Source: Eledone cirrhosa (lineage: Eukaryota). Taken from it: a DNA stretch of 64,000 nucleotides. The notes below the pieces were generated by a model. It did not search any database and had not been told where the DNA came from. It was given only the letters and a program-made list of their open reading frames with translations. Shown here in pieces: positions 9,362-52,096 of the stretch. The translations under genes and the position numbers were made by a program. How positions within the stretch are numbered: the first letter of the stretch is position 1; each line of letters opens with the position of its first letter. The DNA lies in NCBI GenBank assembly GCA_964016885.1, contig OZ024743.1:102486001-102550000 (forward strand), given 5' to 3'.

Positions 9362-9486
9362 TGTGTTATAATTGTTTCGCCGGGGAGTACCCTGAAAAAA
9401 GGTGCCCAAAGAAATGAGGTTAAAAGGGTGAGATTTTATATTGTGTGGATCTGTCTGATTCCGTACCCGCTGGTTCGACGGACACA
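9362..9486 (-). ncRNA. Putative hammerhead with variant CCGUCGA core
   Basis: Minus strand: tgtgt-CCGTCGA-accagcgggtac...gtactccccggc-GAAA-caatt-ATA-acaca, then AATAAA, then (TA)n. One stem III mismatch. Confidence 0.6.
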
Positions 9487-9662
9487 TCTGTAAGAGCATT
9501 GAGTGCTCAACCGGTCTACCGCCTATCGACGCATTTTAGCTTCCACCAGACACACACACACATATATATATATGTATTAAAGAGTTAAACAAGATTCAAT
9601 GAGTACATCAAAGAATGAGATTGGAAGCACTCTACATAAAAAATAATTTTCCAGAGTTATTA

Positions 9663-9969
9663 ATATTAAAATACGAATATTAATAAAATAGATGTTCTTT
9701 TGATCAATTAAATTGTATTATACATATTTCAGAGGTACAACAGTACGTCCTCATCAGACAAAATATAATGATACATGACATACCCTGAGATGTTAAATGG
9801 TTAAGATTTAATCAAGGTAGTAAATATTAACCATTTAACATCTCAGGGTATGTCATGTATCATTATATTTTGTCTGACGAGGACGTACTGTTGTACCTCT
9901 GAAATATGTATAATACAATTTAATTGATCAAAAGAACATCTATTTTATTAATATTTGTATTTTAATATA
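9663..9969. repeat. Inverted repeat (arms of about 148 bp) with hammerheads, between (TA)n tracts
   Basis: 9663-9810 and 9821-9969 are near-perfect reverse complements. Confidence 0.95.
9867..9919 (+). ncRNA. Minimal type-I hammerhead (mirror copy at 9712-9764, -)
   Basis: attttgt-CTGACGA-gga c gtac tgtt gtac c tct-GAAA-t atgt ATA-atacaat. Confidence 0.8.
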
Positions 9970-9984
9970 TATATATATCAAAAT

Positions 9985-47400: not shown

Positions 47401-48511
47401 GCTTAACGGAGCTGCTAGGTTGATAGTCCAACAGTTCTAAAGAAAATTTCACACTGTCATGAACATAGGTGGAAGGAGATTATTGACAAAAAACAATACA
47501 TTCGCAGGTCAATGAATTCTGAAAATAATTCAGGCCACGTGCTAGAGCTCAATTGGATTAAAAAATAATAAGATTTCTACAAATTGTATAGGAAAACGTT
47601 GAAAACTAGAGTCTTTCAGAAGGTTTATTTACAATAATTTATGACGTTACTGGTTTTTACAATTTTCAAGATTTTTCAAAAGTCAAGAAAGATGGAGAAA
47701 CGTGCGGTTATGCCGACCTCTATTTCGCATCTGCCAGATAAAGGTATAGCCAGGGTTAAGTCTGCTGTAACGAGTTGTTGTTACTGTTGACAGTTATTGC
47801 TAGGTTTTATTTCACCGGATTACAACGGAATATTGAAGATATTTTCTCATAACTAAATTGATACTGCATCATTTGAAGAGGTTATTGTTTGTTTTTGAAA
47901 TGAGCTATTATAAACCGGTATTGGAAAATTCAAAATGATTTATTTCTATAAAACTAAGGAAAATATCTTATATTTAACAATTCGCTCATAAAGTGAAGCA
48001 GTTTTCTAATATTTTAATTGTCCATTGTATACCTCTAAAATATGAATGGGACTACTTTGTTATTGGTTCATAAAAGAATGAATTTTTTATGAACATTTCA
48101 CAGGATTGCATTAATGTACCTTATATTAAACTTAGTGGGAATATTCACAAAGAAGTATTTTAAAATATCGGATTCGATCGATTTTATGATGAAAAAATGC
48201 ATTACAATGGATCATTGGCACAATGTTTAGAACAATGATTTGTAGATTGAGTTATACATTTAAAACTCTCATATGAAATGCTGCTGGAATCTTTAATCCG
48301 TGTTCGAAAAGCTACACGAGTCTACATAGTAGCCTATTCTATCCTAGAAACCTATTTACAGCTAATATTTGTGAGAAAAATATACTAATACAAATGCATA
48401 TATATATATATATAAATGTTGAGTATATGTTGGTTGTTTACCGACACCTCAGTATGCAGATTGGAGCATTCGACGAAGTACGCAGGTTGGTTTGTTTACT
48501 CCGGAGTAATG

Positions 48512-48963
48512 TAAAATAATTAAGTCGAATATGTAAAATTTGGCTTCGTTTACAAATTATAGATATACTGCTATATATATTTCGGTGACAGCCATCATTG
48601 GCTGTGACCTCTTCAGGCAGCCCGAATTGGTGTGGAAAATACAGGTACACATGTTGTTGAAGTGTGTTTTACTCCGTCAATACATCGATATGTCCAGTTC
48701 CTGGTAGTGTTATTATTGCTCCGAGGAACTGAAATCATATAGTTCCAGTTCCTAAGAGAAATAACAACGCTACTAGGAGCTGGACATATCGATGGATTGA
48801 CAGAGTAAAACACACTTCAACAACATGTGTACCTGTCCTTCCCCCACCAATTCGGACTGCCTGAAGAGGTCACAGCCAATGATGGCCGTCACCGAAATAT
48901 ATATAATATGTATAATTTGTAATAAATGAAGCCAAAATTTACATATTTGACTTAATTATTTTA
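48512..48963. repeat. Inverted repeat (arms of about 220 bp) with hammerheads, between (TA)n tracts
   Basis: 48512-48733 versus 48743-48963. Confidence 0.93.
48567..48621 (-). ncRNA. Minimal type-I hammerhead (the plus-arm copy at 48856-48905 lacks the 3' strand of stem I)
   Basis: gctgc-CTGAAGA-ggt c acagcca atga tggctgt c acc-GAAA-t atat ATA-gcagt. Confidence 0.88.
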
Positions 48964-49477
48964 TATATATATATATATATATATATATATATATATATAT
49001 ATATATATATATAATAGAATAATCGAGTATCGGAAAATCAGCTCACGAATTTACGATAAACAAAATCCGACATGAGTGGCAGAGGGCTCAATAATTCAGA
49101 TAAATCAGAGCTATAACTATCGTTAAGATACCAACACACAAAGATTATGCCTAAAATCACCCGTGCAGCCGAAATATATATATATATATATAAGAGACCA
49201 ACCATAGCATAACACTAAATATACAACACAACATACTATATACTAAAACGGTCCGACATATACATCGAGTGCTTAATTTGGTGGACCAATAGTAGCGTAA
49301 AGTTAGAAAACACACACAGAAACACACACATATACATATATGAATATATATATATATATATATATATATATATATATGCAGGGGGTGTAACTAGGAGTTA
49401 CTGCAGGTTCACCCGGGAGAGCACTCGGTGTTTAGGTTGACTTCTGTGATGAGGTGTAGAGCTATACAGAGTGTGAT

Positions 49478-52096
49478 ATATTGAAAGGATAACAAGGACG
49501 ATTGATTATTCCTTCATTGCATTTATTGATAGGTGACGCGCGTTTCGCCACTGATCAGCTCAAGGTTCGATCTATATCGATCCTACCCGACTCAATAATC
49601 GGCAGCTCGACGGACCCTCTTAAAATGCTATAAGAAAATGAAATACATGCTATGTGGTAAAGTCAGAGTTTCAAGAGTTTGACAAAATTAGTTATTTTGA
49701 TTGGTGGGAAGGATCAAGGCGATGTACTGGCCTGTAGTGTATATGGGGGTAGATGTGATGGTGAGATGCTGGTGACGGTCGGTGGATGAGATGGGCTGTG
49801 GTGGTGGTGGTGGTGGTGGGTTGGCCTTGGCGTGTAGAGTATGTGGGGGTGGATGTGATGATATGGTGGTGGTTATGGTTACGTAGTGGGATGGGCTGTG
49901 GTATGAGGTTAGTGGATTGTCAGTAGACGAGTTGGCGTGTGTGGGGGGGTGTGGTAGTGGTGCCGTTGTCTAGGGTAGCGGCGTTTGTGGTGGTGTGGTG
50001 GACGTATTGGTGGTGTCACGTCCTTACATAGATACATAGCTAGACGCTCTTCGTCTGACATATACGTTGTATATACGTATACACACACACATATATGTAT
50101 ATATGTGCACATATATTGTTGTATAAACACACACAATACAAAACACATACGCACATCCTTGCCCACACATATCGACACACGCTCATACACAGCCATATGT
50201 ATATGTACACACATGTACGTGCATGCGCGCATGCGGACACGAATATGGACAGTGGGGGAGTATCGGTGGGGGTGGCGAACGACAAAGATGGGAGGATGGT
50301 GAGAGGCAATGTAGAAGGTGTTATACATATATACATACACATACATATACTCATACACACATATGGATATGGGCACATGGACGCACACTCACGTATACAA
50401 AATATACACATACACACTCACACACACGTATACTCACACACACATATATATATATATATATATATATATATATATATATACACACACATGTACAGGCAAC
50501 ACACACACACACGTACATATACACATACATGCACATATATGAGCTCACTTACACATACAGTCAGATTCACCTATATACATATATTTAGACGTACACATAC
50601 ACACACATACATACACATACATATACACACACATATACACATACGTATACATATATATATATATATATATATATATACACACATATATGTATATATGTTC
50701 ACATACACACACACACATACATATAAATATGAGTACACGCACGCATATTTATACGCCCGTATGTGTAAAAATACTTACACACAGACACACACACTATTGT
50801 TGGTTGGGGAGTGGAGGTATGTGTTGGCGGTGTTGATGAAGTATGGAGTTGTGTCTTGTGGTGGTGGTGGTGGTGGTGGTGGAATTGTGAGGAACAAAAA
50901 TATATATACAGGATCGAATACCGGTTAAAAGGTGACATAGGGAACGCGGGGGAGAAGCGTTTATGGACGTACGGCGATGTGTGTTGTGGACATGGTGATG
51001 GTGGTGGTGCTGGGGTAATATGTTCGACAAGATGGTTACATGATCAGAGGTTACGGTGTGTTATATGGTAGGCAGACGGGGGGTGGGGGATATATAATAC
51101 AGTCGAGCTGGGAGCGAGGGATGATATATGTTGATGATGTTAATGATAATGATTGTTGAAGTATGTGGATGTATCTAGTGGTGGCGGTGGTTGTGTGTGC
51201 GTGCGACAGTACAATTACAGGGTCGAATTTAGCGTGGGGTTGTAGGTTAGGGTAGACAGAGGGAACATGGGGGGATGAGGTTGTAGGTGTGTATGGTAGA
51301 TATATGACGATGTGTGGTGTGGTGGTGGTGGCGATGGTGCGATATGATCGACATTGTATTTACAAGATCCCTTGTCATTATGGATTGTAAGGTAAAACCT
51401 ATCATAGGAGACCGATCTAATACGATGTTGCAACGATGAGGTGTGTATGTTGATGTGAATTTTGGTGCGGGTGATGTGTGCAGCATGATATACAAATGCG
51501 GGCTTAGAAATGGTTACATGGAGTACAATAAAATAAGTTCACTGAGATGGGCGATGGTGAGACGTGGTATAGGTGGTTATCACACCACCACAAACGCCGC
51601 TACCATAGACAACGGAACCACCCCCACACCCCCACAAACACGCCAACCCGTCTACTGACAATCCACTAACCTCATACCACATCATATCCCACTAAGCAAC
51701 CATAACCACCACCATATCATCACATCCACCCCCACATACTCTACACGCCAAGGCCAACCCACCACCACCACACCACAGGCCATCTCATCCACCGACTGTC
51801 ACCAACATCTCACCATCACATCCACCCCCATAAACACTACAGGCCAGTACATCGCCTTGATCCTTCCCACCAATCAAAACAACTCAATTTGTCAAACTCT
51901 TGAAACTCTGACTTTACCACATAGCATGTATTTTATTTTCTCATAGCATTTTAAGAGGGTCCGTCGAGCTGCCGATTATTGAGTCGGGTAGGATCGATAT
52001 AGATCGACACTTGAGCTAATCAGTGGCGAAACGCGCGTCACCTATCAATAAATGCAATGAAGGAATAATCAATCGTCCTTGTTATCCTTTCAATAT
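49478..52096. mobile_element. Inverted repeat with arms of about 520-540 bp and a 1.56-kb spacer (PLE-like 3' region)
   Basis: 49478-50017 versus 51581-52096; (TA)n flanks both outer sides. Confidence 0.88.
51957..52043 (+). ncRNA. Hammerhead with CCGUCGA core (mirror copy at 49531-49617, -)
   Basis: gggt-CCGTCGA-gctgccgatta...taatcagtggc-GAAA-c gcgc GTC-acct; AATAAA at 52047. Confidence 0.72.

Follow-up and report, generated by a model that had tools for sequence, protein, structure and literature searches.

Can the hammerhead motif of a mobile element depart from its catalytic core at two positions as the settled sequence of whole subfamilies, and would such a motif still cut? The question is raised by a 64,000-nt stretch of the Eledone cirrhosa genome (contig OZ024743.1, positions 102,486,001 to 102,550,000, hereafter the window), in which a Penelope-like element (PLE) has left three hammerhead-type motifs. 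An analysis of the letters alone (the sequence-only reading) had placed them at 51957-52043 on the forward strand and at 49617-49531 and 9486-9362 on the reverse strand, and all three were found there, with helices, core arrangement and GAAA in place. The first two belong to what is here called lineage A, and the third to lineage B. In each, the segment that is canonically C3 U4 G5 A6 N7 G8 A9 reads CCGUCGA, and thus carries U4C and A6U. The window holds nine CCGTCGA heptamers where chance alone would give 1.5 on average; three occurrences are the hammerhead cores, three lie in an abundant repeat resembling a short interspersed nuclear element, and the other three belong to a different hammerhead family, in which they form the junction between stem II and GAAA.

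The variant core was found to be a consensus and not the decay of individual copies, as the sequence-only reading had proposed. The 3.0 Gb genome was searched with patterns of the form core-N55-68-GAAACNNNNGTHAC, using the reversed pattern as control; since matches had to be exact, all counts are lower bounds. The CCGTNGA pattern gave 2,343 matches (control 16), CTGANGA, representing sister subfamilies, 2,164 (control 33), and CCGANGA, with U4C alone, 2,081 (control 25). The pattern with U4 and any letter but A at position 6 (CTG-notA-NGA) gave 386 (control 55), and those listed were scattered derivatives and unrelated repeats, with no subfamily combining U4 and U6 among them. Candidate places numbered at least 2,275 for A, and 407 for the damaged B query. 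CCGTCGA was read in 32 of 34 lineage A motifs from 30 loci picked by similarity, and at 19 of 30 loci in a lineage B sample in which the core was left unspecified, the remainder comprising five A6 sister cores and six decayed or truncated copies. Contigs from three public runs (one sample, possibly the assembly's own) held no alternative letter at 5% or more across 51961-67. Together, these counts and reads reject single-copy decay or an assembly error. CpG decay was also considered as the source of the sister cores, but it fits only scattered CTGTCGA, CCATCGA and TCGTCGA copies, whereas the sister cores are whole subfamilies carrying their own linked diagnostic letters.

With U4C and A6U in the consensus, the canonical core is absent. 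Published natural variants with a single change at one or the other of these positions nevertheless retain the name hammerhead (PMC3088659, PMC7151607), so the departure lowers the case for membership in that class and does not exclude it. Descriptors built on CUGANGA do miss the motif, as had been anticipated: no hammerhead family appeared among 150 of the 159 Rfam matches of the window, at E up to 5, and Rfam also missed the canonical-core motifs that the window contains. No short-stem-II class with a CCGUCGA core emerged from the genome, where two such patterns gave 82 matches against 186 in the control and 1,025 against 2,489; in metagenomes, where the pattern matched at least 119 times, none of 119 matches combined a stem I of three pairs with a stem II of four in six.

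The sequence-only reading had described the two families as unrelated, with dissimilar flanks, and this part had to be abandoned. The domains II of A (60 nt) and B (61 nt) align with a score of 34, compared with a mean of 10.3 and a best of 32 for shuffles, none of which reached 34 in 5,000, and both hammerheads sit behind related PLE proteins. Two unrelated families are thus ruled out; judged from these alignments, A and B are sister lineages of one PLE. Their likeness is hidden in the window because its B copy carries an internal replacement in domain II and a G16.2A change, the latter breaking the loop III palindrome.

The host element could be characterized from long copies elsewhere in the genome. 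In lineage A, motifs that by eye we take to be those of a reverse transcriptase (RT) are followed in the open reading frame (ORF) by a C-terminal GIY-YIG domain (Pfam PF01541, E 0.0036, below its cut-off), and a cysteine linker, CxC-x5-C-x4-C with spacing judged by eye, precedes the YIG in both lineages; B has the same linker and endonuclease region. The RT piece of A matched no Pfam family and nothing relevant in the PDB. Three full-length A units carry CCGTCGA in each of their terminal repeats; the two motifs of a unit are separated by 4.4-5.0 kb, and the start codon follows the upstream cleavage site at a distance of about 199 nt. The six loci that were read are all frameshifted or incomplete, their longest open stretches being 661 and 667 codons. 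Pseudo-long terminal repeats (pLTRs), an inverted 5' copy, a one-sided tail and microsatellite targets are all present. On these sequence features the element is identified as an endonuclease-bearing (EN+) PLE with RT and C-terminal GIY-YIG in one ORF, and its linker is of the Neptune/Nematis kind. Both the 52 nt past the cleavage site and the one-sided tail are ORF leader, and because copies run past the site, the template for insertion would have been uncut or re-ligated RNA. An AATAAA lies 6-8 nt past the cleavage site in all subfamilies and, despite its location in the ORF leader, few columns of the lineage are as well conserved; polyadenylation there (52047-52052 and 9360-9355 in the window) could compete with or replace ribozyme cleavage. 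Other PLE ORF fragments with a cysteine linker and GIY-YIG, approximately 35-50% identical to A and B over the aligned parts, were noted in the window at 10096-10533 (forward) and 32222-32833 (reverse).

To follow the two substitutions, the genome was searched with patterns tied to domain II that put no constraint on the core. Lineage A (359 and 1,952 matches) yielded the linked haplotypes CTGACGA, CCGACGA and CCGTCGA, in that succession, and lineage B (1,240 matches) yielded CCGAAGA, CCGACGA and CCGTCGA. In a tree built without the core columns, from which 12 young A copies had been thinned out, a 23-row U6 group of A (support 97/96) was nested within CTGACGA rows, while lineage B was kept apart (95/95). 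Forcing 18 U6 rows together among 80, over 115 columns, was rejected (p-AU 0.001); this constraint tree contained at most six rows per group, after four misassigned and two odd rows had been dropped. Each lineage has also kept a CCGACGA intermediate, with its own flanks. The rejection of a single U6 origin and the presence of these intermediates on both sides indicate that A6U most likely arose in parallel, twice, on a C4/C7 background. Hence, of the earlier claim that one substitution pair occurs in two unrelated families, the unrelatedness falls but the two origins stand. The alternative that the core arose once and moved between A and B by recombination or template switching is highly improbable. 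The two lineages have similar amplification divergence (3-4.5%) and could have shared cells and enzymes, but the tract they have in common covers just 9 nt, it is bordered by differences in stem I and at position 10.1, and each lineage possesses a CCGACGA intermediate with flanks of its own.

Ages inferred from divergence agree with a late variant in lineage A, where median values were 0.110 (n = 16, mostly CCGACGA) and 0.064 (n = 18, CTGACGA) for the older subfamilies, and 0.045 (n = 14) and 0.030 (n = 19, the subfamily present in the window) for the younger ones, both CCGTCGA; the variant core therefore marks the youngest A subfamilies. In lineage B the medians lie close together, at 0.045 (n = 5), 0.038 (n = 5), 0.042 (n = 6), 0.034 (n = 26, CCGTCGA) and 0.026 (n = 4, two from one locus), so that the order within B is settled neither by age nor by the tree. 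Group Bx and all older groups carry A6, which calls for a separate gain of U6 in B, to the extent that older groups, sampled with A6 patterns, can speak to this.

Further core variants were observed in passing. In subfamily B0 (loci L101, L120 and L130) the core is longer by one A (CUGAAAGA) and loop III, CATTTG, is not a palindrome; at another locus (L310), CUGAAGA is followed by an additional A and may represent an intermediate. Five lineage A copies within G000:C1:211978129-213015054 carry CUGGCGA (A6G) and are probably segmental duplicates of one mutated copy. Locus L119 (G000:C1:5557850) and similar ones have CAGACGA and, at a distance, GAAACGTGGGTCAC, which could be a U4A core or an unrelated element.

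Outside positions 4, 6 and 7 the core has been constant. C3, G5, G8, A9, G12, A13, A14, A15.1 and U16.1 underwent no change over 18 subfamily consensuses, whereas the consensus tree requires five changes at N4, two at N6 and six at N7. For the old groups this constancy is partly circular, since the search patterns fixed those letters; samples blind to the core confirmed it for A1-A4 and B1-B3, and no subfamily with another change was found. The G12 A13 A14 run, the A15.1-U16.1 pair and H17 required of a hammerhead are all in place. Across nine steps among young subfamilies, 71 substitutions in 122 columns missed the nine positions (P approximately 0.004). Constancy there, together with the changes observed at 4, 6 and 10.1, points to a relaxation specific to these three positions.

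The helices surrounding the core are likewise shared. All 18 consensuses have an outer helix, a three-pair helix, an AG/G internal loop (AA/G in B), two invariant UC/GA pairs and a distal hairpin. In 12 consensuses, 174 of 192 helix cells were paired, compared with a shuffled mean of 144 and no equal in 5,000 shuffles, a figure that is not a probability because the sequences are related and the pairs were hand-chosen from constrained folds. The helices covary, and the three-helix anatomy of a type I hammerhead with open stem I is present. RNAalifold returned no consensus pairs from a sequence-only alignment of 15 single copies, and single copies folded no better than shuffles. Loop III is the palindrome CGCGCG in A and C and CAATTG in B1-B3 and Bx, switching as a whole, and is not palindromic in B0 and the old decayed consensuses. 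The 10.1-11.1 pair is G-C in lineage A and A-C or A-G in B1-B3 and Bx. Two proposals that A6U was selected through folding were discarded, as the predicted effects run in opposite directions in A and B: one was escape from a misfold pairing A6 with U16.1 and C7 with G16.2, predicted in A2 and B2, and the other was an off-state helix involving G12.

Does such a motif cut? The chances appear evenly poised that it is a low-rate cutter, dependent on dimerization and probably on protein, and from its sequence it is predicted to cut slowly, if at all. In the mechanism we propose, a type I hammerhead is carried in both terminal repeats of the retrotransposon, and two sister lineages, most likely independently of each other, fixed first U4C and then A6U. 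Within a tandem transcript, the two hammerhead copies would pair through the loop III palindrome to build stem III. In hammerheads G12 acts as the general base and G8 as the general acid; both would keep these roles here, with 4 and 6 being core positions at which a loss of rate may be tolerated. The element may have drifted or been tuned to a low rate, possibly because insertion uses uncut RNA as its template and seldom requires a cut. Amplification continued after both changes, to about 2,300 copies. Work on other hammerheads is compatible with a slow ribozyme: U4C "considerably decreases activity in vitro" yet allows viroid infectivity, a natural A6C variant cuts at less than 0.1/min, and U4 contacts the A6-N7 phosphate (PMC3088659). 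With Mn2+ or high Mg2+, A6C regains activity (PMC7151607). Cutting by a lizard PLE hammerhead requires the protein of its element (PMC11167929), and PLE hammerheads with a tiny palindromic helix III are thought to be dimeric and weak cutters (PMC4209133).

Several observations weigh against cutting. A6C alone cost one ribozyme more than 10,000-fold at 0.3 mM Mg2+ relative to Mn2+ (PMC7151607), and the double change may therefore be dead. In lineage A after A6U, none of the 14 substitutions that accumulated over 122 nt fell on the 10 remaining core positions (P = 0.30) or on 22 core and stem positions (P = 0.06), so that selection on the core since that change is not demonstrable. Lineage B has lost the G10.1-C11.1 pair, and in A4 the conserved CAG/CUG three-pair helix has eroded to UUG/CUG. 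In most subfamilies, whether their core is variant or canonical, that core is buried when the monomer fold is predicted, the hammerhead-compatible ensemble lying 2-7 kcal/mol above the whole ensemble in well-sampled subfamilies. Finally, copy ends do not pile up at the cleavage site, even in the A6 sisters: when copies not preceded by C17 were examined and true 5' ends at the site counted, U6 lineage A had 3 in the 30 copies read out of 41, its A6 sisters had 6 events in 30 out of 42, and a control position 3 nt downstream gave 4 among 30 (of 42). The core had been called maintained; it has kept the status of a consensus, while selection for cutting found no backing in the statistics after A6U or in the eroded A4 helix.

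A close rival, somewhat less probable than slow cutting, is a motif that does not cut, in which cleavage is dispensable and the fold persists as a structural signal (a palindrome for dimerization, an AG/G loop that binds protein, an ORF leader) or because there has been too little time for decay. Catalytic mutants of the lizard PLE hammerhead insert normally in vitro (PMC11167929), and Naiads have spread without canonical hammerheads (PMC8557442). The independent departures seen here (U4C, A6U, the inserted A of CUGAAAGA and the loss of G10.1-C11.1), the lack of measurable constraint after A6U, the A4 helix erosion and a predicted A4 alternative hairpin that pairs G5-A9 would all fit. However, a fully neutral core should also have lost G5, G8 and G12, which stand in CpG contexts, and no subfamily did; an identical change at an identical position in two lineages is not the commonest outcome of random decay; and two A4 substitutions after A6U restored two distal stem I pairs.

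That CCGUCGA is instead an active and selected state, reached twice by the same two steps and made possible by the long domain II or an element protein, seems unlikely from the sequences at hand. In its specific form, U4C and A6U would compensate for each other, or be compensated by the long domain II, under positive selection, and the ribozyme would either have full activity or be turned on by conditions such as Mn2+ or bound protein; we regard this as quite improbable. In its favor, U6 subfamilies occur only on the C4/C7 background in both lineages, the 386 matches for U4 without A6 contain only scattered derivatives or unrelated repeats among those listed, the variant is confined to the long-domain-II lineage (the short-stem patterns given above did not exceed their controls), U6 marks the youngest A subfamilies, and A6C switches metal preference (PMC7151607). 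On the other hand, nothing structural on contact between C4 and U6 was found, A6U brings no consistent gain in folding (from 8.8 to 7.3 kcal/mol in A4 but from 3.2 to 5.1 in B), and two events cannot separate selection from chance. Slow cutting remains our working explanation.

The features of the two insertions are collected in the table. The lineage A insertion consists of a 5'-truncated copy of about 2.2 kb on the reverse strand and an inverted copy of about 0.5 kb on the forward strand, and the long copy L095 matches it at 86% over 2,286 nt and 95% over 481 nt. The segment 52040..52091 corresponds to the beginning of the 199-nt ORF leader of full-length units. The lineage B insertion is made up of an inverted tail (9487-9545) and the hammerhead-bearing 3' end.

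Table. Positions of the lineage A and lineage B insertions and of their hammerhead parts in the window.
Feature	Positions	Strand	Remarks
Lineage A insertion	49378..52091	.	one insertion, youngest subfamily A4, in (TA)n; ends approximate
Stem I 5' strand, gggt	51957..51960	+	extendable to 6 pairs with one A bulged
Variant core C3 C4 G5 U6 C7 G8 A9 (CCGTCGA)	51961..51967	+	
Domain II	51968..52027	+	60 nt, long irregular hairpin conserved lineage-wide: outer helix, 3-pair helix, AG/G internal loop, UC/GA pairs, GAUC hairpin
G12 A13 A14 A15.1, palindrome CGCGCG, U16.1, C17	52028..52039	+	GAAA at 52028-31
Predicted cleavage site, lineage A motif	after 52039	+	TC before acct
Stem I 3' strand acct, AATAAA, 3' end of copy	52040..52091	+	AATAAA at 52047-52
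Second lineage A hammerhead motif	49531..49617	-	mirror copy; core 49613-49607
One-sided tail	49378..49482	-	about 105 nt, leader continuing towards start codon
Low-complexity 3' non-coding region, lineage A element	49618..51580	-	
Lineage B short insertion	9315..9545	-	subfamily B3, in (TA)n; ends approximate
Lineage B variant core CCGUCGA	9475..9481	-	stem I tgtgt 9486-9482 / acaca 9366-9362
Damaged domain II of lineage B copy	9379..9474	-	96 nt (61 nt in the family); 3' half mostly replaced
GAAA, CAATTA, UA	9367..9378	-	GAAA at 9378-75; family palindrome CAATTG; predicted cleavage after 9367
AATAAA beyond lineage B motif	9360-9355	-	

Other elements were also noted in the window. A second type I hammerhead family with a U3-A8 core, TTGATAA, is found at 36268-36356 (forward), with a mirror ending at 35016 (reverse) and a partial copy at 63664 (reverse); its stem II is AT-rich and 55 nt in length, its stem III is long (CGGCT-TGAGCTC-AGCCG), and it is part of an inverted insertion at 34969-36375. 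U3-A8 is a published hammerhead core variant (PMC4209133). Hammerhead-like motifs with canonical CUGANGA cores lie at 48616 (reverse), with a mirror near 48861 (forward), at 47333 (reverse) and at 34505 (reverse), two of them with a TATATA palindrome as stem/loop III. Fragments resembling non-LTR (long terminal repeat) reverse transcriptase ORFs, presumably RTE-like, occupy 33502-34338 and 19373-19864 on the reverse strand. An open frame at 52805-53299 (forward) contains a protein-like exon (LAKGIIAFLENYDTVHTFSLIAQEE...ARINILHCS), in our assumption reminiscent of the ligand-binding domain of a glutamate or peptide receptor, and the repeats probably lie in introns of this gene. Long inverted repeats at 6840-6933, 9658-9973, 35277-36069, 48572-48905 and 55172-56605 are typical of head-to-head insertions of PLEs or miniature inverted-repeat transposable elements, and account for spurious Rfam microRNA matches.

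PLE hammerheads are weak cutters in vitro, and in one study insertion proceeded without any need for cleavage (PMC4209133, PMC11167929). Against this background, one lineage here offers a dated natural mutational series in two parallel branches, its steps amplified to hundreds or thousands of copies, and the cleavage rates of the series would show whether the element needs, tunes down or discards cutting. Should the double variant cut, all descriptor searches rest on too narrow a core consensus; should it be dead, the genome provides evidence of PLE spread without cleavage, with the fold kept. Were it both active and selected, the hammerhead consensus would be wider, with a hidden class missed by CUGANGA searches, and CUGACGA, CCGACGA and CCGUCGA would form a dated series for the tuning of ribozyme rate in a retrotransposon.

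In the full-text literature searched, which did not extend to Lunse, Weinberg and Breaker (2017), U4C and A6C were found singly and no CCGUCGA or A6U hammerhead was found. The alignment in supplementary file 2 of PMC4209133 gave no CCGUCGA or A6U core for the terms searched, file 1 lying outside the search. The CCGTCGA heptamer occurs 23 times in element sequences of the PMC8557442 supplement, and neither of the two occurrences inspected is a core. By sequence, CCGUCGA is a variant of the known PLE hammerhead, family-wide and most likely twice derived. It shares with the hammerheads described by Cervera and de la Pena (2014, PMC4209133) the type I arrangement, presence in both pLTRs, a short stem I, a small palindromic helix III predicted to be dimeric, several consensus families per genome, and many truncated and inverted copies. 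It differs from them in the core variant (U3-A8 in that report), in its 60-nt domain II in place of a helix II of 6-8 pairs, and, in lineage A, in having no extra base between A9 and 10.1. The same two positions vary, with the rest of the core kept, in the viroid U4C and the phage Bcep176 A6C (Perreault et al., 2011, PMC3088659; PMC7151607), whereas here both changes occur together, position 6 being U, and the combination is a consensus shared by thousands of copies, with its intermediates preserved. With EN+ PLEs that have a CX2-5CxxC-type linker, Neptune/Nematis (Craig et al., 2021, PMC8557442), the element has in common RT, cysteine linker, C-terminal GIY-YIG, pLTRs, inverted 5' copies, a one-sided tail and (TA)n targets; it departs from them in its low-complexity 3' non-coding region of about 2 kb and in a tail of about 105 nt instead of 30-40. 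Lastly, the hammerhead of PAc (Poseidon) from Anolis (PMC11167929) likewise lies in the 5' leader/pLTR of a PLE whose copies extend past the cleavage site and end at two tail-defining positions, but its core is canonical and its site lies inside the ORF, whereas here the site is 199 nt upstream.

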